A stretch of DNA of 64,000 bases, taken from positions 25,078-89,077 of the IMG/VR virus record IMGVR_UViG_3300045988_129305. The stretch is one strand, 5' to 3'. Positions 23,748-61,450 of this stretch are shown here, piece by piece. Positions within the stretch are counted from its first letter, which is position 1. The number at the start of each line of letters is the position of its first letter. This DNA comes from a virus. The notes under the pieces are model-generated. The model ran no database searches and was not told the DNA's origin. It was given only the letters and a program-made list of their open reading frames with translations. The translations under genes were made by a program, and so were the position numbers.

Positions 23748-25640
23748 TTGATTACACTTGAAAGACCGGCATATTATGACTCAAAAAGATATAATGAATA
23801 TTGCGGATTAAGTACTGATGATAAAACGATCGTAAGCGCTTATAATGGCGATGAGTTCTATGAAATCAATACTGGTAAATATTACAAATATAATCAAGTT
23901 TCAAATGAATGGGTAGAACAACCTGAAGATACAGCGGCTATTGACACCGGATTACCTCCAATTACTGATGAAACAAGCGGACATTTTTTAAGTAATGATG
24001 GTAATGTTACTCATTGGCAAGCATTAGCATCGAGAAATTTTGTTATTCAATTAACAGAAAATGTCAATAATAAAACTTATACCGCCGATAAGACTTATGT
24101 TGAAATCAAATCGGCGTTTGATGCAAAAGAAAATTTAGTTGTTAGATTAAATAGTAGCGAATTTAGCTTGATGAATGTTGAGTTCGCTAATGAGAATGAA
24201 GCTGGTTTTACTTTTGGTTATACTGAGGTTAGATTAGATGGACAAGTTATTGAAACAAGGTCTATTCAATATACTCACAGCAATGGGGCAGATAATTGGT
24301 CTGATAGCGATGACACTGCCGATTTGTCTGAATATCTATCTTTGTCTGGCGGAATATTAAGTGGCCGGTTACATTTAGCCGACAATCCTACTGAAGATTT
24401 AGAGGCGGCCACTAAGTATTATGTGGATAACCACAACATGATTGTTCGCTTTACATCAGATGCGGTGGCAGGATTTAATGCAGATAAATCTATTCAAGAG
24501 ATCGTAGCCGCTTCTTTAGCGAAAAAATATATAAGTGGTGAACTTAATGGCGATGTATATGGCTTGACTTCTATATCGGCTACAGAAGTGGTGTTTACTA
24601 GAGTTGACGAAAATAAGGTGTCTACGATTAGCTATTTAAATGGCGCATGGTCTAAGTCTGAGCAAACATTATTGCCACTTAAAGGTGGCAAAATGGATGG
24701 CAATATCAACATGAATAGCAATTCTATTACAAGTATACAAAAATTACATGTTGACGGTTCTGCTCCGATTTATATTGGTTCTGTTATTGAACCGGGCATT
24801 AATGCCCCACGGCTGGTTGGCTCTACAGGCGGCTCAGCAGCATTTGTTAAAGCATCTTCTCAGAGTGAATATGTACCAGTTGCTGTTGGAACTCCAAGCG
24901 CACCAGATCACGCTGTTAATTTACGGCAATTAACCCAAGAAGTATTGGCAGATGCGCCTACGGCTGATGGTTGTATTGCTAATAAGAAATATGTTGATGA
25001 TTGTGTTGCTCGAAAAGTACCATTGGTAGCGGCTAATCCGGGTGAATTAAAGGCATATCTCCAAAATGGTACTAAGCCTGATGTTTGTTTAGTATCTGAT
25101 GCTGGTGGAGCACAATGTATAGCAAGATATACAAGTGATGGGCATTTAATTGATACTCACGCTCCTACGGGCGATAATCAATTAGCGAATAAAAAATATG
25201 TCGATGATAAATTAGCGGCATATAGTAATGTATCTGGCAGTTTACAAATAGCTGGCGATTTAACGGTAAATGGCTCTGCCGCTGTTATTAAAGCACCTGT
25301 TAATAATGTGGATATTCCAAATAAGGGCTATGTCGATACTCAGATTAATTCGGCTGTGGCAGACACAGTAAGGAAACAATCTATAGAAGTTGGAGCTAAT
25401 TCAAGTGTTGATGTTACTTTATCTAACGGCGTTTATTTAGTAACTACTTCAGATAATGCGCATGGTGGCTTAACTTGTGTAGCTGTTTATCCTGATGGCG
25501 AAACAATTACTGGTTTAGTCAATCTGAATGGTTGGAAATGCGAGAAAATAACTAGTGGTAAGGGCATTAATTTAACTAATGTCGTAGGCACAAGTATGAC
25601 TGTTTATATAACCTCAATAGGTGAGGGTACTTATAGATAA
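23748..25640 (+). CDS. tail fiber-like protein
   Basis: 630 aa, TTG start after AAGGTGAG. Fiber motifs LSLSGGILSGRLHLADNPTEDLEAATKYYVD, LPLKGGKMDGNINMNSNSI, and repeated (A/P)NKKYVDD. Confidence 0.75.
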   Translation: MITLERPAYYDSKRYNEYCGLSTDDKTIVSAYNGDEFYEINTGKYYKYNQVSNEWVEQPEDTAAIDTGLPPITDETSGHFLSNDGNVTHWQALASRNFVIQLTENVNNKTYTADKTYVEIKSAFDAKENLVVRLNSSEFSLMNVEFANENEAGFTFGYTEVRLDGQVIETRSIQYTHSNGADNWSDSDDTADLSEYLSLSGGILSGRLHLADNPTEDLEAATKYYVDNHNMIVRFTSDAVAGFNADKSIQEIVAASLAKKYISGELNGDVYGLTSISATEVVFTRVDENKVSTISYLNGAWSKSEQTLLPLKGGKMDGNINMNSNSITSIQKLHVDGSAPIYIGSVIEPGINAPRLVGSTGGSAAFVKASSQSEYVPVAVGTPSAPDHAVNLRQLTQEVLADAPTADGCIANKKYVDDCVARKVPLVAANPGELKAYLQNGTKPDVCLVSDAGGAQCIARYTSDGHLIDTHAPTGDNQLANKKYVDDKLAAYSNVSGSLQIAGDLTVNGSAAVIKAPVNNVDIPNKGYVDTQINSAVADTVRKQSIEVGANSSVDVTLSNGVYLVTTSDNAHGGLTCVAVYPDGETITGLVNLNGWKCEKITSGKGINLTNVVGTSMTVYITSIGEGTYR

Positions 25641-34012: not shown

Positions 34013-34176
34013 TATTCATCCTCCTCATACTCAAAATCCCATCCACTTGGAGCAGAATTAAATGGACAAAATCCATCAACGCAAAGACAACATTCGTGAC
34101 AATTCTTAGCTTTATCACAGTATTTCATTATTTCTATTGCGCATTTCTTGAGTTTATCAGATTTTTTAATATTCAT
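34012..34176 (-). CDS. small Cys-rich protein (54 aa, not in the track)
   Basis: ATGA overlap upstream and TAATG overlap downstream. ..CAIEIMKYCDKAKNCHECCLCVDGFCPF.. followed by an acidic tail. Confidence 0.45.
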   Translation of the reverse strand: MNIKKSDKLKKCAIEIMKYCDKAKNCHECCLCVDGFCPFNSAPSGWDFEYEEDE

Positions 34177-34532
34177 ATCGTTTTACCTATTTTCTTAAAT
34201 ATTACTATTTTATCGTTACGTGTACGAATGAGATAAATGCTTTCGTGATACGATATTATGTACAGCATTGCATTGCTATCACCTTCACTGTCTATAATTT
34301 CGCCGTATCTTACTATTTGCCAAGGATAATCTTCAAAACAACAGGCCGGAATATTAAATCTACTGGACACATAATATTCTGAATTGACAGTCGGGATTGA
34401 AACATCAATTTCTTTGCCCCAAGGAACATCATCCTTATCTATCATTGCGATGGAACTATTGGCATCAATATAATATCCATTTTCGATAGCCATTTCTTTT
34501 GCTTTATCCCATGACATAAGTTTAAGTTTCAT
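34173..34532 (-). CDS. hypothetical protein, tandem paralog B
   Basis: 119 aa. Shares MS(W/F)(D/N)KA..NGY..DD(V/A)PWG..YY..IP..CFE..KKIG with 34522-34938. Confidence 0.6.
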   Translation of the reverse strand: MKLKLMSWDKAKEMAIENGYYIDANSSIAMIDKDDVPWGKEIDVSIPTVNSEYYVSSRFNIPACCFEDYPWQIVRYGEIIDSEGDSNAMLYIISYHESIYLIRTRNDKIVIFKKIGKTI

Positions 34533-34938
34533 TGTTTGCTCTCCCTATTTTCTTAAATTCTACAGTTTTGCCATTTACTATCTTAATATAATAAATATAA
34601 CCGCAACAATTAATAATCACAATGCGAACACAATAAGCGCTTTCATTGTTAGTATCATAAAGCTGGTCATCTGTAATAATTGTACCGTAACGAAGAACAA
34701 GCGATGAATCAACAGCTGTGATAGCCGCTTCAAAACAGTAAGAGGGTATAGAATAGTGATGAAAAGTATAATATTTGTCATCCAAATTATTACATTCAAC
34801 CATTATCTTCTCACCCCAAGGTGCGTCATCTTCTGTAAGCCCACAAATTTGATTTCGATGCGGTATGGTAAAATACCCATTGGAACGCGCGACGTCCATA
34901 GCTTTATTGAACGACATAAGCTCTGCTATCATTTTCAT
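34522..34938 (-). CDS. hypothetical protein, tandem paralog A
   Basis: 138 aa, AAGGAGG SD. Paralogous to 34173-34532. Confidence 0.6.
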   Translation of the reverse strand: MKMIAELMSFNKAMDVARSNGYFTIPHRNQICGLTEDDAPWGEKIMVECNNLDDKYYTFHHYSIPSYCFEAAITAVDSSLVLRYGTIITDDQLYDTNNESAYCVRIVIINCCGYIYYIKIVNGKTVEFKKIGRANNET

Positions 34939-34945
34939 AAGAAAT

Positions 34946-34998
34946 AACCTCCTTGATTTATGTAATCACAATATATCATAAATCAAGGAGGTTGTCAA
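34946..34998 (-). promoter_or_regulatory. 17-bp hairpin overlapping a promoter and the next gene's SD
   Basis: Perfect inverted repeat AACCTCCTTGATTTATG (34946-34962) / CATAAATCAAGGAGGTT (34977-34993). On the - strand: TTGACA (34998-34993), 17 nt, TATATT (34975-34970). The 3' arm of the RNA hairpin carries the AAGGAGG SD of gene 34522-34938. Confidence 0.6.
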
Positions 34999-35001
34999 GG
35001 G

Positions 35002-35643
35002 TCATTCTACGAAATTCTTAAAATCTTTCCATTTAATTTTAACGATTATCCTATTGCCGAGTCGATCTTTCATTTCAACTTTGGGTCTACCAACAACACC
35101 TTCCATAGCCGCCTTACCAATTGTTGAATTATTATGTTGCATCACACAATCAATTCCATCGCCAATAGTACCTTCCAGTACAATAGGAACAACATCAACA
35201 TTAAACATCTTAGCCGTAGCTTCAACCCATTCACGAGACTGCCAATTATCGCCAATTAGTACATCAAATAAAATAAACGATACATCAGAACGATAATCGC
35301 CGCCATTCTGTATTTTAGCTCCATAGCCTTCACCGAATAGCATTACATCTTTCTCGCCATAAGTCTGTTCAAATAGCTCTTCAACTTCGGGCGTAAGAAA
35401 TGTTGCGCTCAGATAATCCATAAGATGCTTAGGAATCTGTGCCCTATCAGTTCTGCCACCAATTTCTACATTATGCCCATCCCAATGTATTCTAATATTT
35501 GTTCCATCAATCTTTTCTGTAAACTGCCAAATATTGTCAGCAAGATATTCAACAGTTTCATTTCGATAATCGCCCCAAATAAGTCTCTTATCACCATCTG
35601 TAGAACGATTAAATACCGTTTCTATCTTATGATATTCACGCAT
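35002..35643 (-). CDS. ATP-dependent RNA (or DNA) ligase, small KxDG nucleotidyltransferase
   Basis: 213 aa. EKIDGTNIRI (motif I lysine), FGEGYG (motif IV-like) and KIKWKD (motif V-like). Confidence 0.8.
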   Translation of the reverse strand: MREYHKIETVFNRSTDGDKRLIWGDYRNETVEYLADNIWQFTEKIDGTNIRIHWDGHNVEIGGRTDRAQIPKHLMDYLSATFLTPEVEELFEQTYGEKDVMLFGEGYGAKIQNGGDYRSDVSFILFDVLIGDNWQSREWVEATAKMFNVDVVPIVLEGTIGDGIDCVMQHNNSTIGKAAMEGVVGRPKVEMKDRLGNRIIVKIKWKDFKNFVE

Positions 35644-35810
35644 TATTTTAATCTCCTTATCTTTTTTTTAATTCTGTGTCCTTTACTTATCATTTTAAGC
35701 ATTATCTTCTGATAACAAAATAATTTTATGCCAAAATACTGTTCAACAAATACGTCTGGATGTTTAGCATAAAGTTCCGAAATGAACGAATAAGCATCAT
35801 TCGTTTTCAT
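35643..35810 (-). CDS. small hypothetical protein (55 aa, not in the track)
   Basis: ATG 35810 overlaps the upstream stop. The TAATG junction overlaps the ligase start. Contains an A8 run near its 3' end. Confidence 0.4.
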   Translation of the reverse strand: MKTNDAYSFISELYAKHPDVFVEQYFGIKLFCYQKIMLKMISKGHRIKKKIRRLK

Positions 35811-36021
35811 CAAACTTAAAATTCCTATTCTTATCTATTAGTTCTTTTAATTCAATATAAGGTTGCTTGCCACATATCTTACAAGTATATTCCCACGGCT
35901 TATCCATATCATATATTTCTTTACCAATAGGCATACCACAATAACGGCATTTTAGAGCCAATGATTTACCAAGTTTATCAGTTTTCTTGACTTTCTTTAG
36001 CCAATTTCTTGCTCTGCTCAT
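35797..36021 (-). CDS. zinc-ribbon protein
   Basis: 74 aa, CRYCGMP..CKICGK. Overlaps the PP-loop gene end by 44 nt. Confidence 0.55.
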   Translation of the reverse strand: MSRARNWLKKVKKTDKLGKSLALKCRYCGMPIGKEIYDMDKPWEYTCKICGKQPYIELKELIDKNRNFKFDENE

Positions 36022-37054
36022 TTTCTTTCTCCTTATACTTTATACGATATTCATCTCGTTTGGCTTCATCACCGTCATTCCACCACTTTACGTTGATGAA
36101 ATCAAGGACTTTAGCCATACCAAGCCCTTTGTCAGGAACCCATTTACCAGATTCATCGTAATTGCCACCACGCATACAATAGTCATAGAGTTGTGGGTGT
36201 GTTTGAGCAAGGGTTTGAAAACGGTTTGGTTCTTTCTCAAGATGACATCCATAACCACAAAATACACAACCAGTCCGTTTATAATCAGTAAAGTAAAGAA
36301 TCCCATTAGTTTCTTTTAGTTCACCATAGACAGGCGCATAAGATAGATTGTATTTTTGGATGTATCGCAATACATCCTGTTCTGTCCAAAAAGCCATTGG
36401 TGTAGATATGAGAGCTTTTAAGTTAAAAGCATTATAACCTTGCAATAGCCATTGTTTTTCTCGTCTTTCGCTTTCGCAGGTCATCACGGCTGTCATTGGG
36501 TGTAAGTTGGTTCTTTTGTAATAATGTTTTAATGGTTCTTTTTTCATTTTATTGCAACAATTATCCCCAATGTTAAAATCGGCACTGGCACAATAATGAT
36601 ATTTATTTGGGAGCTTCATAGTAGTAGCCTTTCGCCCAGTAGCGGTAATGCCAGTTAATCTTAATCGCCTAGTTTGTTCATTGTGAGATGTTGGATGTTG
36701 CAAGTCCCAAATCATACGAGAACATTGTTTAGATATTATAGGATAACCGAATTTTGTAATAACTTCTCCGAATATCATTTTAGGCTTAACGATTTCAATA
36801 TTATTAAAAGTTTTGACAAACGCTCGGATTTCTGGAAATTCAAGCCCAGTATCACTGAAAACGCCTAAAACATTAGGATATGTACGTCTTACTAAATCAA
36901 GTAATACAGTAGAATCTTTACCACCTGAAAAACTCACACACACTTCCCCATTCCAACTTTCATACCACTCAATTATCCGGGCGGTAGAAATCTGGATTTT
37001 TTCTTCAAGGGGCTTGGATTGTAGTTCTCTCAAATCATCTTTTGTATGGCTCAT
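35978..37054 (-). CDS. PP-loop ATP pyrophosphatase of the PAPS-reductase family (DndC/SspD/TtcA-like)
   Basis: 358 aa. VCVSFSGGKDSTVLLDLV (SGGKDS PP-loop) and a C-terminal Cys cluster RTGCVFCGYGCH. Confidence 0.85.
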   Translation of the reverse strand: MSHTKDDLRELQSKPLEEKIQISTARIIEWYESWNGEVCVSFSGGKDSTVLLDLVRRTYPNVLGVFSDTGLEFPEIRAFVKTFNNIEIVKPKMIFGEVITKFGYPIISKQCSRMIWDLQHPTSHNEQTRRLRLTGITATGRKATTMKLPNKYHYCASADFNIGDNCCNKMKKEPLKHYYKRTNLHPMTAVMTCESERREKQWLLQGYNAFNLKALISTPMAFWTEQDVLRYIQKYNLSYAPVYGELKETNGILYFTDYKRTGCVFCGYGCHLEKEPNRFQTLAQTHPQLYDYCMRGGNYDESGKWVPDKGLGMAKVLDFINVKWWNDGDEAKRDEYRIKYKEKENEQSKKLAKESQEN

Positions 37055-38136
37055 TTTACATACAACTCCTTAAAATTCTTAATACCTTCAACCAACGCCT
37101 CTACATCCTCAACGTTACTATCCTCGCCAAAGCTAACCCTAATAACCTCACTGGCTTCATCGTTATTCAGCCCATAGGCGTTTAGCACTCGATAATCATG
37201 CTTTTCAGCGCAAGCAGAACCACCAATAGATACATAGATTTGCTTAGATGCGAGGTACTGTTGGAGGGCATCTGCATTAAATCCGGGCAGACGAATGGCG
37301 TTGATTGCTAAAGCAAAAGGCTTGTCAGCTTCACTCGCCGGTACTGTTGGAATAAAACTATGTTTTATATTTGCTCTATCCAACTCTCTATCAAGTTCAT
37401 TAACTAAATTAAACCATTTGGTATCTCGTTCAATCAATGCTTCTTTATCGCAAACCTCCTCTACCGCTTGAGTCAAAGCCAATGCACCGGTAAGATTAGG
37501 TGTGCCGTGTAGCTTAAAACCATTGAGCCATTTGTCTAATCCATCAGAAATCCACATAGCACCAATGCCAAGCTCAGTGCCTAACTTATGACCGCTCCAA
37601 ACAGCACAGTCACACCATTGGTCGATGTTGGTCGGAATTGGGACTTTACCAATCATAGTTGTCATGTCACAGATGTAAAAAGCACTATACTCATGGCAAA
37701 GCTTGCCAATTTCTTCAACTGGAAAAACTTCACCCGTAAGATTGTTAACACCTTGCCATATCACAAACGACTGGTCATAACTTTCAGGGTCATTTTTATA
37801 AGCAATCAATAAATTTTTCATCCAGTTTATATTGTCGGACATATTGTCTGCATATCTAAAAAAACTATCATGTTCATAAACAGAGCACAAAACATTTCGA
37901 AAAAAAGTTTCCTCGTTGATAGCCGTCATCAAATTCTCAATCAACTGACTGCTCGTACCACCAAAAACAACCTTACCAGATTTGGCTCCAACGGCCTTTT
38001 TTATTCTATCCTCACACTTCTTTAACAGTTGCTTTTCCTTGTAAGCATAGTTGGCATTAACATTAAAAAACGAACCATAATTAGAGCAAGGATATTTAAC
38101 TTTAGGGCAAGCAGCGGCATAATCCAAATAAACCAT
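37051..38136 (-). CDS. cysteine desulfurase (class V aminotransferase, NifS/IscS-like)
   Basis: 361 aa. SGHKLGTELGIGAMWI (PLP lysine) and GGSACAE (catalytic Cys loop). 4-nt overlap with the PP-loop gene. Confidence 0.8.
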   Translation of the reverse strand: MVYLDYAAACPKVKYPCSNYGSFFNVNANYAYKEKQLLKKCEDRIKKAVGAKSGKVVFGGTSSQLIENLMTAINEETFFRNVLCSVYEHDSFFRYADNMSDNINWMKNLLIAYKNDPESYDQSFVIWQGVNNLTGEVFPVEEIGKLCHEYSAFYICDMTTMIGKVPIPTNIDQWCDCAVWSGHKLGTELGIGAMWISDGLDKWLNGFKLHGTPNLTGALALTQAVEEVCDKEALIERDTKWFNLVNELDRELDRANIKHSFIPTVPASEADKPFALAINAIRLPGFNADALQQYLASKQIYVSIGGSACAEKHDYRVLNAYGLNNDEASEVIRVSFGEDSNVEDVEALVEGIKNFKELYVK

Positions 38137-39779
38137 TACTTAAATAAATCCTCCCAACTTAATTCATTATCATCTTCAACATTGCTTATCTCATATCTAT
38201 CTATTTCACATTGCGGCGTAAGAACGTTATTATAATCATTAACCTTACAGTTTTTTACTATAATTTCGAGTCTAAATTTGTTTTTACTTATTAAGGTGGA
38301 TATATCTTCGTCTTTAGCAAAAAATTTCAAACAGGTTAAATTTCCTAATGATATTCTAATAGTATTTGTACTTTTTTTGAATACGACTATATTATCTTGA
38401 GTAACAATAGTCGATATATAGAATGTAGGCGAATCTAAGCCGTGTCCCCATAATTGTCTATTAGAATCTATTATTTCACATAGCTTAACATCTATGTCAT
38501 TAGAATCAACAATAGCCGTAACAGGTATATCAGGCTGAACATCTAAGTCCAGAGAATCCAGCCAATTAGCAAATCGCCTTAATTGCGATTTTTTAACCAC
38601 TACACCACAAGCCGATTGATGACCCATAGCTTTAGCAAGCTTAGACGTATTGATTCTATCAGCCAACTCAACTGGACTACGCAATGAGCCAGACCATGTG
38701 GTATTATTAGATTCTCTAAGCAATATAGTTGGTTTATTATATTTACCAACAAATTTATTAGCTATTAAGCCGAGATAATTCTTATCCTCAACTTCGCCAA
38801 ATCCAATAATTACTTTATGGTCAAGATTTAATTTCGGCTCGATTGTATTAGTAGCCAATTTAACCGCTTCGTCTTGCTGGCGTTTAATGCGCCTTAAATC
38901 TGTTAAAGCCTCATTACCATCTATATCGCCTATAAGAGCTTTAAAGAATAATAACTTAGTCTCTTGATTATCTACTCTTGCTAATGCATTAGCTAACGGC
39001 GCAATACCCCATGCTATAGCTTCGGGCGTATAACCATATTTTTTACTATTCTTTTCAAATAATAGCCGCAAGAATGGATTCGTAACATTATTTAACCCGT
39101 TATATAGATAGGCTCTATTTTCTAATGTTGTTATATCACATACATCAGATATAAGACTAATAGCAACTAAATCATCAAAGAACCATCTACTACAACCACA
39201 TTTTTCGCAATATGCCCTAACAAATTTATCTGTTACGCCAGTGCCACTAAGAGCCGTATTAAGCCCGTTACCTAAATGATGATTAATTACTATGGCGTAT
39301 GGATTACTATTTAATATTTCGTGATGGTCGAGTACAATAGTGCGAATATGATTTTGAGCTAATGTCATACATTCGGCTCTATCATTGGAACTAGCGTCAG
39401 GAATTATAAGTAAATCAACAGGCGAATTTATTATATCATCTAAGACATCATTTAGTCCGTGTTGTTTGCCAGTATGCTGAAATATTATAGGATTGATTCG
39501 TCTTTGTCTAAGTAACCCACGTAGAAACATTGTCATTAGAGCCGCCGAAGCACAGCCATCAAGATCAGAATCAACCAATATACCGATAACACATTCATCC
39601 TGTATAGCCGTATTTAACAGCTCAACAGCTTCTTCCATATTCGAATAAGCCCAAGGCGAATCAAAACAGCTATTATCTGGACGGAGATATTTATCTATAT
39701 CTTTTACACCACAAGCTGATAGATAATCATTGATAAATGTATTGCTTAAAACTTGAGGCAACTTAGGACTAACTTTCAA
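38136..39779 (-). CDS. DHH/DHHA1 phosphoesterase (RecJ-like)
   Basis: 547 aa. DSDLDGCASAA, IIPDASSND, VLDHHE and DHHA1-type GHQSACG. Confidence 0.85.
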   Translation of the reverse strand: MKVSPKLPQVLSNTFINDYLSACGVKDIDKYLRPDNSCFDSPWAYSNMEEAVELLNTAIQDECVIGILVDSDLDGCASAALMTMFLRGLLRQRRINPIIFQHTGKQHGLNDVLDDIINSPVDLLIIPDASSNDRAECMTLAQNHIRTIVLDHHEILNSNPYAIVINHHLGNGLNTALSGTGVTDKFVRAYCEKCGCSRWFFDDLVAISLISDVCDITTLENRAYLYNGLNNVTNPFLRLLFEKNSKKYGYTPEAIAWGIAPLANALARVDNQETKLLFFKALIGDIDGNEALTDLRRIKRQQDEAVKLATNTIEPKLNLDHKVIIGFGEVEDKNYLGLIANKFVGKYNKPTILLRESNNTTWSGSLRSPVELADRINTSKLAKAMGHQSACGVVVKKSQLRRFANWLDSLDLDVQPDIPVTAIVDSNDIDVKLCEIIDSNRQLWGHGLDSPTFYISTIVTQDNIVVFKKSTNTIRISLGNLTCLKFFAKDEDISTLISKNKFRLEIIVKNCKVNDYNNVLTPQCEIDRYEISNVEDDNELSWEDLFK

Positions 39780-40009
39780 CTAACCACCTCATCAATTTTA
39801 GCTTGGAGCTTACGATTCTTAGCTCTAAGCCGTTGACATTTTCTTCGCCAGTTTAGATTATTCTTTTTAAGTTTCTTTGTTATCTGTTCTCTTGTTTGCT
39901 TAAAATCACATTTATTCGCCGTACCCTTTACAAGCAAATAAACACAAACGGGCTTATGCAAGCAATCATCACATAGTCTCGCATTATAATTTTCATCGGA
40001 CATAAACAT
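39776..40009 (-). CDS. small Cys-rich / basic coiled-coil protein
   Basis: ATG 40009 after AAGGAGG. The track start 40069 lies inside the promoter -35. CDDCLHKPVC..KCDF followed by a Lys/Arg-rich helix. Confidence 0.5.
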   Translation of the reverse strand: MFMSDENYNARLCDDCLHKPVCVYLLVKGTANKCDFKQTREQITKKLKKNNLNWRRKCQRLRAKNRKLQAKIDEVVS

Positions 40010-40040
40010 AAGAAATGACCTCCTTATAAATTGTAAATCA

Positions 40041-40069
40041 ATCTTACCATAAGAAGGCCATTTTGTCAA
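40041..40069 (-). promoter_or_regulatory. sigma-A-type promoter
   Basis: On the - strand: TTGACA (40069-40064), 17 nt, TAAGAT (40046-40041). Confidence 0.5.
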
Positions 40070-40073
40070 GTAT

Positions 40074-41474
40074 TTATATGTATATTTTTTGATTTTCTTG
40101 AGTACAAATTACTCTTGCTGATTTACCTTGAGATATAAGTTCGTCTTGTAGTGTATAGGCAAATTTTACTTTATCCTCATAATTACCATGTACTAATGCA
40201 ATCTTATTATATCGGCATTGATTGGCATAATAATCTATCAGCTCTTCATAACTGGCATGAGACGAAAATGAACGAAGTTCAGTAATATTTGCATTATTGG
40301 GTACCAATACACCATCAATCATTACCTCTTTTTGGCCAGATTTAATTTGGCTTGCAAGATTATTATCACCGGCATATCCAACAAATATAAGATGATTGTT
40401 TGAATGTGGTAGAGCTGTTTTAAGATGGTTTATTATCCTCCCACCTTGAAGAAATCCAGACGCGCTTATAATCACACAATGAGCATTAGATGCTTGTAAC
40501 AAAACAGATGATTCCCATGAATCAATAACTTTTAAATTATCCCAATGACTTATTTTATCCCATTCAAAAGAATCGGGCCAAATAGAATTGATTCTACTTG
40601 CTAATGGACTATCAAGATATACAGAGAACGGAAAAGCTAATTTGTTCCTATCCCAAAGATGATATAACACAGTCAATATCTCTTGAGTTCGGCCTAAAGA
40701 GAATGTTGGAATTAGTATCTTGCTATATGCGTTTATAATAGATACCAATTTTTCTTCATCTTTGGGACGGTCTTTTATATTATTAGGTCGAGCTGGGCTA
40801 TTATATGTATTTTCGCCTATTAGTACATCGATAAATGGCAATGATTGCTTATTATTAACATAAGGTCGAGATGCATTGCCACCTATATCACCAGTATATC
40901 CTACTCGTTTAGTTATATTACCCTCTTTCAATTCGACTATAACTTGTGCCGAGTTGATAATATGACCGGCTGGATAATAAGTAAAACTAATACAATTATT
41001 GATTTTATATGGTTTATTAAAATCAACTTCTATACATCTCATCAATGCCTTAGATATATCATTGGCTGAATAATATGGGCTTGCTTTACGTCCATGTTTA
41101 GCTTCTATCTTTTGGCAATCAGATGTAAGAATTTTTAAGCTATCATCCCATAATAATTTAAGGAAATCAACAGAGCCTTTAGGAACATATACATGAGCAT
41201 TACAGCCTTTAGCGAATAGAGCCGGTATAAGCCCACTATGATCTATATGCACATGAGATAAAATAATATAATCTATCTCATTGGCTTTAATTGATTCTAT
41301 TTGATTCTTATTAGCTTGCTATACCGATACTATATCGCCGCCTTGTACCATACCACAATCAAGAAGTAATGAATATTTCTTAAATCGCAAATGATGCATT
41401 GAGCCTGTTACATCAGTAGATGAGCCGCCTATCATGTGTAGATATGGCCGACTTGTGCCATTACCTTTTACCAT
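40074..41474 (-). CDS. metallo-beta-lactamase / beta-CASP nuclease interrupted by one in-frame TAG (41319-41321)
   Basis: ATG 41474 abuts the upstream stop (TAAATG). N-terminus MVKGNG..LLLDCGMVQGGDIVSV, then TAG, then QANKNQIESIKANEIDYIILSHVHIDHSG (HxHxDH). The track ORF begins only at GVG 41252 inside the HxHxDH motif. Confidence 0.75.
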
Positions 41475-59216: not shown

Positions 59217-60068
59217 TTACCATAACTCCTTTCTCATAGCATTTTCAACATCATCTTCAGACGATTTAATATATCTATTAGTTGTCTGTATATTACTATG
59301 TCCAAGCATATCACGAATAGTAGCTACATCAACGCCATTTTTATTAGCAATAGTAGCACACGCAGCTCTAAGCCAATGAGGACTGATTTCTTTCCAATAA
59401 CTCAATCCAGCCCTATATGCTATCTGCTTAAGACTCTTACAAGCATTAGCCTCATTTATAACATTACCTTCAAACGATTCAAACAACATGGTATGCTGAC
59501 GACCATTGGCAATTTCATCGGCTATATACTTATCTATATACATCATTGTTTTCTCATTGATATATATTTTACGTTGCTTATTGCCTTTACCTGTAATGAT
59601 TATATCATTAGTTTTACCAGCTCTAAATTCTTCATATTGTTTCATCGTAATGCTATTCATTTCGGCAAAACGAAGCCCAGTTGAAGCCAATATAGATATT
59701 ATTGCTCTTGCTCTCGGCGATTCAGTAGCGGCTATCATCTTAGATACATCCTTAGCCGTCATGCACTGTTTGACTTTAGGATTATTTTTGAGCTTTTTAA
59801 CTTTATCAAATGGATTATCATCAACCATATCCATATCTTCAAGCCAAACCCAATAGCTCTTTATAGCACTGAGCCGAAGATTGATGCTACTTGCACTCAA
59901 GCCAGTCAATGTAGCCTTATAACCAATCAATTCGGCATTGCCGATTTCTTCTTCAGGCTTATCGCAGAACCGCATAAACTCATTTATGTACTTAACATAA
60001 TTTTTTATTGTCTGCTCAGATTTCTTATCGGCTCTAAGTGATTTAATATACTGGTCTATTCTATTCAT
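59217..60068 (-). CDS. int: tyrosine recombinase / integrase (XerC/D-like)
   Basis: 283 aa. SAM-like N-domain, ..GLRFAE.., HWLRAACAT and LGHSNIQTTNRYI (R-H-R-Y catalytic set). Confidence 0.9.
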   Translation of the reverse strand: MNRIDQYIKSLRADKKSEQTIKNYVKYINEFMRFCDKPEEEIGNAELIGYKATLTGLSASSINLRLSAIKSYWVWLEDMDMVDDNPFDKVKKLKNNPKVKQCMTAKDVSKMIAATESPRARAIISILASTGLRFAEMNSITMKQYEEFRAGKTNDIIITGKGNKQRKIYINEKTMMYIDKYIADEIANGRQHTMLFESFEGNVINEANACKSLKQIAYRAGLSYWKEISPHWLRAACATIANKNGVDVATIRDMLGHSNIQTTNRYIKSSEDDVENAMRKELW

Positions 60069-60759: not shown

Positions 60760-60834
60760 TGGCGGGGGCAATAGGACTCGAACCTATAATGTTGGAGTCA
60801 AATTCCAATATGTTACCAATTACATCATACCCCT
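60760..60834 (-). tRNA. tRNA-Gln (anticodon UUG)
   Basis: 75 nt with encoded CCA. D-arm ATGT/ACAT with AATTGGTA loop, anticodon arm TTGGA-ATTTGAC-TCCAA, T-arm ATAGG-TTCGAGT-CCTAT. Discriminator G73 and an unpaired A1.C72, both consistent with Gln identity. Confidence 0.8.
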
Positions 60835-61365: not shown

Positions 61366-61450
61366 TGGTGCGGAATATGGGACTCGAACCCATAAGCCTT
61401 ACGGCATCCGAGCTTAAATCGGATGTGTTTCCCAGTTTCACCAATTCCGC
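61366..61450 (-). tRNA. tRNA-Leu (anticodon UAA), class II
   Basis: 85 nt with encoded CCA. Acceptor GCGGAAT/ATTCCGC, anticodon arm TCCGA-TTTAAGC-TCGGA, long variable arm TGCCGTAAGGCTT, T-arm ATGGG-TTCGAGT-CCCAT. Confidence 0.9.

Follow-up and report, generated by a model that had tools for sequence, protein, structure and literature searches.

A recurrent desulfurase and PAPS-reductase-like gene pair in gut phages as a candidate sulfur relay to nucleic acid

A gene for a cysteine desulfurase lying next to a gene for a PP-loop ATPase of the phosphoadenosine phosphosulfate (PAPS) reductase family raises the question of whether a phage carries its own machinery for inserting sulfur into nucleic acid. 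Such a locus is found in the IMG/VR virus record IMGVR_UViG_3300045988_129305, of which positions 25,078 to 89,077 were analysed; this whole stretch of 64,000 nucleotides (nt) is called the window, and coordinates refer to it unless another locus is named. The initial annotation had described positions 34946 to 40069 as an operon of seven genes, and had proposed that they form one phage system for thiolation and repair of nucleic acid. Genes, order and motifs were confirmed for all seven, which lie on the minus strand, and an independent gene call on an ENA contig agrees. Our results suggest that only two of them, the desulfurase gene and the gene of the PAPS-reductase-family PP-loop protein (hereafter PAPS-like), form a cassette, and that this cassette may encode a sulfur relay.

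About 130 loci were compared (12 and then 28 IMG/VR contigs with the desulfurase, 80 viral and 80 cellular loci with the PAPS-like gene, and several contigs from protein collections). The absence of a gene was scored by pattern scans over whole contigs plus 5-8-kb flanks, a procedure that missed at least one PAPS-like gene (the copy of L127 was found only via its desulfurase). Across these loci the genes of the RecJ-like protein, the beta-CASP nuclease and the RNA ligase and the small open reading frames (ORFs) move, vanish or are replaced, and the view of seven genes as one system was therefore given up. In one sub-clade the RecJ-like gene adjoins the cassette on its upstream side; in another it is found 3-5 kb downstream, past the primase gene, and the desulfurase gene there stands between the beta-CASP nuclease and primase genes. 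The RNA ligase gene is present in L001, L012 and L211 and absent in L098, and homologues of the 55-amino-acid (aa) ORF sit after DnaB in L004, L026 and L050. We conclude that the RecJ-like protein and the RNA ligase, like the small Cys-rich protein and the 55-aa ORF, are no more than neighbours from the replication and repair module. The 74-aa Zn ribbon is a possible accessory of the pair; its gene follows the PAPS-like gene in L004, L020, L023, L024, L027, L036, L094, L095 and L098, and directly follows the desulfurase gene in L001, L012 and L211, all of which lack the PAPS-like gene.

What stood of the initial proposal is the coupling of the desulfurase with the PP-loop enzyme: in this gut-phage clade, whose members have about 50-125 kb, the two recur as a pair with translational coupling (in the window the two genes overlap by 4 nt). 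A PAPS-like gene was found on the same strand and at most 1 kb from the desulfurase gene in 11 of the 28 desulfurase contigs of IMG/VR, and the two genes adjoin in 10 of the 18 clade loci that carry a PAPS-like gene, the other eight having no desulfurase. The pairing spans three desulfurase sub-lineages (33-64% identical to that of the window) and both gene orders, and it also occurs in L094-L096, L098 and L099. Wherever a fetched locus had both genes, they were within 1 kb of each other and on the same strand. No fusion of the two proteins was present among the 120 matches listed for a query of the concatenated pair. Since the core genes recur together yet each occurs alone, we regard them as a cassette that is facultative and occupies a slot for accessory genes.

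The desulfurase is of the NifS/IscS type (group I) and is probably active, judging from its sequence. It matches Aminotran_5 of Pfam (5.7e-24; 85.2 bits against a cut-off of 21.5) and has the SGHK and GSAC motifs, with Lys184 encoded at 37585-37587 and Cys309 at 37210-37212. The best PDB matches are IscS/NifS proteins (1e-11) in which the Lys and Cys are aligned, and Lys184 (SGHK), Cys309 (GGSAC) and the Arg align with their counterparts in the desulfurase 5zsp. H89, D157, K184, C309 and R333 are invariant among 30 homologues of 35-80% identity; these positions correspond to the His stacked on pyridoxal phosphate (PLP), the Asp at the pyridine N, the PLP-binding Lys, the catalytic Cys and the substrate-binding Arg. 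The protein is about 40 residues shorter than the matched IscS/NifS chains of the PDB, which have 380-426 residues. Among the PADLOC profiles it matched SspA (1.6e-25) and DndA (4.8e-25), and it scored far under every NCBIfam equivalog cut-off (NifS, IscS, DndA, SufS), the best score being 79.3 bits against 530.75 for NifS, with 50.8 against 480 for DndA. Searches with tblastn returned only matches of 22-31% identity, mostly in unannotated records. By these comparisons the protein is a divergent phage sub-family of group I. The desulfurases are only 70-74% identical between phages that are otherwise 90-95% identical; mosaic recombination was considered for this low identity and ruled out, as the divergence is concentrated in hypervariable residues ~91-120 and ~241-270. 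In two phages the desulfurase gene is broken, in an intron-like manner, by an ORF of 188-243 aa resembling a homing endonuclease (L113, 4082-5873; L123, 3868-5810), and the N- and C-terminal parts of the desulfurase are in separate ORFs.

The PAPS-like protein matches PAPS_reduct (PF01507; 8.3e-20) and phrog_424 (1.8e-44), and no PF01171 (ATP_bind_3) was found in its Pfam scan. Its AlphaFold model (predicted local distance difference test score, pLDDT, 94) has the fold of PAPS reductases and adenine-nucleotide-alpha-hydrolases. The PP-loop SGGKDS is encoded at 36911-36928, and all 80 family members compared (36-78% identity) have the motif SxSGG[KV]DS and the cysteines C166, C167, C263 and C266. 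C207 is present in 76 of the 80 and C293, which lies 27 residues past the CxxC, in 70. The initial annotation had pointed to a C-terminal CxxCxxxC cluster (C263xxC266xxxC270); the CxxC is conserved as supposed, whereas the third cysteine, C270, occurs in only 34 of the 80 members. The spacing CCxxxK...GCxxC resembles what we take to be the set of Fe-S ligands in APS (adenosine phosphosulfate) reductase, and a PDB search with the C-terminal half gave no significant alignment. The family is large: the scored candidates make up at least 7,900 clusters at 90% identity. Its phrog_424 relatives include phiCP34O gp07 (Clostridium), Tyrion gp48 (Enterobacter) and Basilisk gp11 (Bacillus), with 35-47% identity over ~90% of the length. 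Many PAPS-like genes of more distant phages (L054-L077, e.g. L070 and L077) are in two ORFs, with ~150 aa in the N-terminal and ~220 aa in the C-terminal one, which suggests an intervening element or a frameshift. The copy in L014 (a contig shared with L005) has an in-frame TAA at codon 200, a column that is Gln or Lys in relatives; a pseudogene, an error and recoding are all possible.

The initial annotation had argued that a desulfurase plus a PP-loop ATPase stands for sulfur-insertion chemistry, and this is reasonable because the catalytic residues of the desulfurase are kept, the PP-loop is canonical and the cysteines are invariant. The PF01507-domain proteins DndC, SspD and BrxP are reported to put sulfur from a desulfurase donor into DNA, for which they normally need a nucleoside triphosphatase (NTPase), and TdpC to make phosphorothioate by itself through an adenylated intermediate (PMC12914056). 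We tentatively propose that the pair is a two-gene relay, in which a PP-loop/Fe-S enzyme receives the persulfide of the desulfurase, adenylates a nucleic acid, probably DNA, and then thiolates it; we hold this to be a real possibility that stops somewhat short of probable. The desulfurase would draw sulfur from cysteine and carry it as a persulfide on Cys309, as its intact catalytic residues suggest, and would hand it to the adjoining, translationally coupled PAPS-like enzyme. By analogy with DndC, SspD, BrxP and TdpC, the latter would adenylate an oxygen of the substrate with its canonical PP-loop. Its CC...CxxC site, possibly holding a [4Fe-4S] cluster, would then exchange that oxygen for sulfur, as in the same enzymes and in Fe-S thiolases. 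The substrate would most likely be phage DNA, modified by backbone phosphorothioation or as a thio-base, and the modification would serve to mark the genome or shield it from restriction by the host. Phages that have only the PAPS-like gene would rely on the desulfurase of the host.

The preference for DNA comes from the neighbours of PAPS-like genes. In the 80 cellular loci, which are mostly prophage-like, the commonest ones encode C5 DNA methyltransferases (10), ParB-fused N6/N4 methyltransferases (8) and Dam-like methyltransferases (4); in the viral loci they encode SSB (16), C5 methyltransferase (15) and RecJ (13). In Clo-PEP-1 the PAPS-like gene separates the small terminase gene from the large one. 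Fusions of the PAPS-like domain were also seen (P0261, P0344, P0323), with a HerA/TraG-type P-loop ATPase, an HTH_17 DNA-binding domain and an S-adenosylmethionine (SAM) methyltransferase; the HerA/TraG-type fusion is P0261, a distant family member, and the cluster of the SAM methyltransferase fusion has 86 member sequences. Taken together, the family-wide context points to DNA as the target. A more specific form of the proposal, that this clade of gut phages has its own minimal machine for sulfur modification of DNA, free of an NTPase and using a PAPS sub-family apart from DndC, SspD and BrxP, seems to us rather doubtful at present.

Several sets of observations weigh against the relay, some of them bearing on other explanations as well. 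To begin with, the whole chemistry of the pair is our inference. For the eight operon proteins the PADLOC matches were limited to the two core genes; neither an adjacent NTPase of the DndD/SspC/BrxC type nor an adjacent DNA-recognition partner of the DndE, SspB or DUF4007 type was found. The distribution of the genes is also unfavourable. The desulfurase occurs without the PAPS-like gene in 17 of the 28 contigs, and none of the 80 cellular PAPS-like loci has an adjacent desulfurase. In L001 and L012, whose neighbouring genes are 90-95% identical to those of the window, the PAPS-like gene is missing and the order is desulfurase, Zn ribbon, ligase. In L211-L214 a 75-aa ORF after the desulfurase (6043-6270 in L211) ends in the last ~30 residues of the PAPS-like protein (DDEAKRDEYRIKYKEKENEQSKKLAKESQEN); by its sequence this ORF is a deletion scar in which the overlapping start region of the Zn ribbon was kept. 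As the slot is shared, part of the adjacency of the pair could reflect a common insertion hotspot.

This distribution bears on a different explanation, which we judge unlikely though worth serious attention, namely that the desulfurase serves during infection as a general source of sulfur for Fe-S clusters in enzymes of the phage or the host, such as those of NrdG, the activase of the anaerobic ribonucleotide reductase, and of the PAPS-like protein. The PAPS-like enzyme would then be one client among others, with a reaction that involves no net sulfur transfer or is unknown. The desulfurase is indeed the more widespread gene of the two in the clade, as the many contigs with it alone indicate, and the phage encodes NrdD and an NrdG of the Fer4_12 type. 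The homing-endonuclease-like ORFs in the desulfurase genes of L113 and L123 also fit, given that homing elements often occupy conserved genes. Viral iscS was read in this way in rumen virome work (PMC5704599), and the passage of PMC12839542 that cites You et al. 2007 has DndA first shown to build the Fe-S cluster of DndC. Set against this, no scaffold gene of the IscU, NifU or SufU type lies beside the desulfurase in the loci examined, and L095 has the pair together with a ribonucleotide reductase of class I/II type instead of NrdD. The constant adjacency and translational coupling of the two genes, where both are present, is also left unexplained. Beside the desulfurase of the desulfurase-only loci, neither a second PP-loop partner nor an Fe-S scaffold was found. 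Because desulfurase-only phages exist, the desulfurase should also have a client independent of the PAPS-like protein, and some role of the Fe-S type is needed in any case.

The matches of the PP-loop protein form a second set. A kinship with DndC, SspD, TtcA/TtuA or QueC, which the initial annotation had named for comparison, did not emerge: profile searches placed the protein in none of these families, nor in BrxP, the matches being limited to residues 16-85. The PADLOC profiles weigh against the relay here, as they cover only residues 27-78 (BrxP), 40-85 (SspD) and 16-56 (DndC). In NCBIfam, PRK06850 spans only residues 12-55 and TtcA only residues 8-56 (E-value 0.0054); the matches to TtcA and TilS are marginal (E about 5e-3) and restricted to the PP-loop, as is that to QueC. 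The top Foldseek matches in the PDB (6vpu, 1sur, 2goy and 7lhs; E 1e-7 to 1e-5; template modelling (TM) score, normalised to the target, 0.56-0.67) are CysH and APS reductase, enzymes of small molecules, while TtuA (E 6e-4, TM about 0.33) and LarE are much weaker. Only generic CysH/PAPS-reductase names, and no DndC, SspD, BrxP or TdpC, appeared among the matches listed for the PDB and BFVD, and no Tdp entry was among the 50 PDB fold matches listed or the 18 PDB sequence matches.

These fold and PDB matches would agree with a metabolic explanation, in which both are auxiliary metabolic genes (AMGs) that boost the sulfur economy of the host, the PAPS-like protein being a reductase of the CysH/APS type for assimilatory sulfate reduction and the desulfurase an unrelated metabolic gene. 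The presence of C293 past the CxxC in most members and the cysteine spacing reminiscent of APS reductase agree with it too, and the virome literature has labelled such genes as cysH and iscS AMGs (PMC5704599, PMC6145125). We nevertheless consider this explanation very improbable. The PP-loop of the family is canonical and invariant while that of CysH is degenerate (SGGKDS is aligned with SSSFGIQA of E. coli CysH), no C-terminal motif of the ECGLH type is present, and the cysH models of NCBIfam gave 38.8-43.7 bits against cut-offs of 154-165. The setting is one of replication and DNA modification, with no other cys genes nearby.

A third point against the relay, at least in this genome, is codon 207 of the PAPS-like gene, which is TAT (Tyr; 36434-36436). 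Cys207, in the motif GCNAF, is found in all 49 other sequences of alignment A1 and in the copies of L094 and L098, which are 95% identical to that of the window. The copy in the window may be impaired by the C207Y substitution, or the base call may be wrong. It is conceivable, although on the unlikely side, that the cassette is decaying in this genome with its PAPS-like gene inactivated by the substitution, which would be compatible with any of the functions discussed here. In favour of decay, the residue departs from nearly the whole family, the adjoining beta-CASP gene has an in-frame TAG where relatives have Tyr, and the PAPS-like gene is deleted in sister genomes. However, the PAPS-like ORF is otherwise intact and close to the Cys207 copies, Cys207 has no assigned role, and both Tyr207 and the TAG are possible assembly errors in a contig labelled cov_20.7.

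Lastly, an RNA ligase or Thg1-family gene directly downstream of the cassette, together with the tRNA genes of the phage, makes RNA a possible target as well. The pair might thiolate tRNA of the phage or the host (e.g. s2U34 or s4U8), much as the desulfurase/PP-loop pairs YrvO-MnmA and NifZ-ThiI do in Bacillota, in support of translation or to evade anticodon nucleases, an explanation that we find quite improbable. The phage encodes tRNA-Gln(UUG) and tRNA-Leu(UAA), the former of which bears s2U34 in bacteria. A gene of RNA-repair type follows the cassette both in the window (RNA ligase) and in L094 (Thg1 family), a gene like that of a beta-CASP RNase lies upstream, and TtuA and LarE are among the fold matches. 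Against tRNA thiolation, the TtcA and TilS matches reach no further than the PP-loop, the fold of TtuA matches weakly (TM about 0.3), and the ligase and Thg1 neighbours are variable. The family-wide neighbours are genes of DNA methyltransferases, SSB and terminase, not tRNA genes, and we know of no tRNA thiolase in PF01507.

The literature searches turned up no characterised phage system with this gene set, as the initial annotation had supposed, and they found neither a functional study of phage PAPS-like proteins nor a description of a coupled desulfurase-PAPS pair. In the rumen virome iscS and cysH were the most frequent viral AMGs and were read as separate genes of sulfur assimilation and Fe-S supply (PMC5704599), and phage genome papers label the PAPS-like family as a sulfate-assimilation gene (PMC6145125). 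What is new here is a putative relay of desulfurase and PAPS-domain protein, resembling those of Dnd, Ssp and BREX type 4, that has a distinct PP-loop sub-family, lacks an NTPase partner and is set among the replication genes of a phage. Should sulfur insertion into phage DNA by the pair be borne out, this would be the first such DNA modification encoded by a phage and a new minimal route to it. It would then likely be a counter-measure to Dnd, Ssp and BREX type 4, systems that about 7.7% of the genomes of the gut microbiome contain (PMC12914056). In that case thousands of viral 'sulfur AMGs' would need re-annotation, and the abundant 'viral cysH' and 'viral iscS' of gut and rumen would be genes of genome modification or anti-restriction. 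A role limited to Fe-S supply or sulfate assimilation would make the finding an ordinary one.

The window is phage DNA of ~35% guanine plus cytosine. A structural and lysis module, with tape measure and endolysin genes, occupies the plus strand to ~26 kb. It is followed by a minus-strand replication module that encodes NrdD/NrdG, a RecD-like helicase, primase, DnaB, two DNA methyltransferases, Sak4, a DNA polymerase of ~1,070 aa and an HNH endonuclease. An 89-kb ENA metagenome contig encodes the same desulfurase protein (100% identity); separate gene calls on it equal those of the window, and its record name carries the label cov_20.7. The phage has approximately 89 kb. A megablast search of the operon against 50,697 phage records gave no match. 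Close relatives are human-gut metagenome sequences, Hadza samples included. The host is probably an anaerobic member of Bacillota, as we infer from the anaerobic ribonucleotide reductase, from an SPbeta-YorH-like domain and from PAPS-like homologues in metagenome-assembled genomes of Oscillospiraceae, Lachnospiraceae and Christensenellales. The features of the locus are listed in Table 1.

Table 1. Positions of the features of the desulfurase and PAPS-like locus and of the tRNA genes in the window
Feature	Position	Strand	Remark
Small Cys-rich protein, 77 aa, basic C-terminal helix (NWRRKCQRLRAKNRKLQ)	39776-40009	minus	ATG at 40009
RecJ-like DHH single-stranded-DNA exonuclease, 547 aa	38136-39779	minus	neighbour, outside cassette
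Desulfurase, NifS/IscS-type (group I), 361 aa	37051-38136	minus	core gene
PAPS-reductase-family PP-loop ATP pyrophosphatase, 358 aa	35978-37054	minus	core gene
Basic Zn-ribbon protein, 74 aa, CxxC...CxxC	35797-36021	minus	candidate accessory
55-aa ORF	35643-35810	minus	neighbour
RNA-ligase-family nucleotidyltransferase, small, 213 aa, KxDG motif	35002-35643	minus	neighbour
Promoter-like site	40041-40069	minus	TTGACA-17-TAAGAT with TG, 10/12; upstream of small protein and RecJ-like gene
Hairpin, 17 bp, 14-nt loop	34946-34993	minus	after ligase gene
Promoter-like site, best of the region, extended -10	34998-34970	minus	TTGACA-17-TGxTATATT, 11/12 plus TG; overlaps hairpin
tRNA-Gln(UUG) and tRNA-Leu(UAA) genes	60760-60834, 61366-61450		beside integrase-like gene 59217-60068, far end of replication module

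The DHH protein had been called a phosphoesterase. The DHH domain was confirmed (Pfam DHH 3.1e-08; phrog_2484 2.7e-114), and the protein is more specifically a full-length RecJ-like exonuclease: TIGR00644 (1.5e-66) aligns residues 20-528 with profile positions 9-545 of 546, the full-length RecJ architecture. It scores under the equivalog cut-off of that model (224.9 against 396.9) and is thus RecJ-like and no strict equivalog. A phosphoesterase of the pAp/nanoRNase type, tied to PAPS chemistry, was also considered and is ruled out by the full-length RecJ-like match. The identification of the KxDG protein as an RNA ligase holds, with the motif EKIDGTN and a PF09414 match above the gathering threshold (1.5e-16; 61.5 bits against 27) as well as phrog_548 (2.1e-21). 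It lies under the equivalog cut-off of Rnl2 (26.8 against 197), and a PDB sequence search gave no match. In L094 a Thg1-family gene (1573-2430; a 3'-5' nucleotidyltransferase of the type that repairs tRNA 5' ends) occupies the slot of the ligase gene, which suggests that this slot collects RNA-repair functions.

The small Cys-rich protein has AAGGAGG 8 nt upstream of its ATG, and its ORF extends to 40069 only via an upstream TTG. It had no family match in profile searches of Pfam, PHROG, NCBIfam and PADLOC, and its C-terminal motif recurs in proteins near the desulfurase of L120, L123 and L125. The family matches of the Zn ribbon in Pfam and NCBIfam are all sub-threshold. Overlaps of 1-4 nt, which had been described for the operon as a whole, are found at four junctions; the PAPS-like and Zn-ribbon genes overlap by 44 nt, and the Zn-ribbon gene and the 55-aa ORF by 14 nt. 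Upstream of the operon, the metallo-beta-lactamase/beta-CASP nuclease gene (40074-41474, minus strand) has its in-frame TAG at 41319-41321, which splits it into ORFs of 51 and 392 aa; in L001, L098 and L211, each with a single ORF of 466 aa, this codon is that of Tyr. The TAG reflects a nonsense mutation or else a mistake in the assembly, and no suppressor tRNA is present in the window.

The promoter given for the operon was recovered as a sigma70-like site, which is a match to the consensus only; 61 such sites were observed in the 9-kb region, and 44.7 are expected. The hairpin that had been taken as the end of the operon is real (folding energy -24.9 kcal/mol, z = -6.3; none of 200 shuffles as stable), whereas its role as a plain terminator was not borne out. 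It has no clear U-tract, and its 3' arm contains the Shine-Dalgarno sequence (AAGGAGG) of the gene 34522-34938, with which the anti-Shine-Dalgarno sequence of the 5' arm pairs. Because of this Shine-Dalgarno sequence and the overlap with the best promoter-like site, the hairpin looks, from its sequence, more like a translational or transcriptional insulator. Transcripts starting at that site (34998-34970) would lack the 5' arm, and the mRNA from it is therefore predicted to be open to translation, and read-through mRNA to be closed. The gene downstream of the hairpin (34522-34938, 138 aa) and the next one (34173-34532, 119 aa) look like tandem paralogues, together spanning 34173-34938; their N-termini are alike (M..SFNKAMDVARSNGYF and MSWDKAKEMAIENGYY), and neither has a family match.

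Comparison with known systems places the pair closest in kind to those that combine a desulfurase with a PP-loop enzyme. The Dnd system likewise has a NifS-like desulfurase (DndA) and a PF01507 PP-loop enzyme (DndC) with Fe-S cysteines and a Cys-Cys dyad (PMC10853773). A desulfurase of the DndA type is dispensable given a housekeeping one, which fits the patchy distribution of the desulfurase in this clade. Unlike Dnd, the phage pair has no DndD, DndE or DndB partners and lies in a replication module rather than a cellular defence island. DndC profiles (468-481 positions) reach no further than the PP-loop region given above, and the phage PAPS-like protein is ~120 residues shorter. The sulfur-inserting cores of Ssp (SspA-SspD) and BREX type 4 (desulfurase-BrxP) also consist of a desulfurase and a PAPS-domain protein, and DndC, SspD and BrxP share with the phage protein the PAPS_reduct domain with a canonical SGGxDS loop. 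The SspD and BrxP profiles, however, match the phage protein over residues 27-85 only, and SspB, SspC, BrxC, PglZ and BrxL are missing from the phage locus. TdpC, compared by description only, is alike in that a single protein makes the phosphorothioate through an adenylated intermediate with no separate NTPase.

CysH and APS reductase have the same fold and share the DTG[LY]xFPE motif, and they differ from the phage protein in its SGGKDS loop, the lack of an ECGLH tail, scores far under the cut-offs and a DNA-related context. Thiolation of tRNA in Bacillota uses dedicated pairs of a desulfurase and a PP-loop protein, YrvO-MnmA and NifZ-ThiI. These pairs and TtuA/NcsA resemble what is proposed for the phage genes, a short relay of a desulfurase and a neighbouring PP-loop ATPase, which adenylates and then thiolates, sometimes with a [4Fe-4S] cluster. 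MnmA, ThiI and TtcA/TtuA nevertheless belong to PP-loop families other than PF01507, with weak or marginal matches, and the phage PAPS-like protein has none of the THUMP, PUA or zinc-finger modules that bind RNA in tRNA thiolases. The phrog_424 phages phiCP34O, Tyrion and Basilisk have the same PAPS-like family; in them the PAPS-like gene stands alone, whereas a dedicated desulfurase partner is a trait of this gut-phage clade only.

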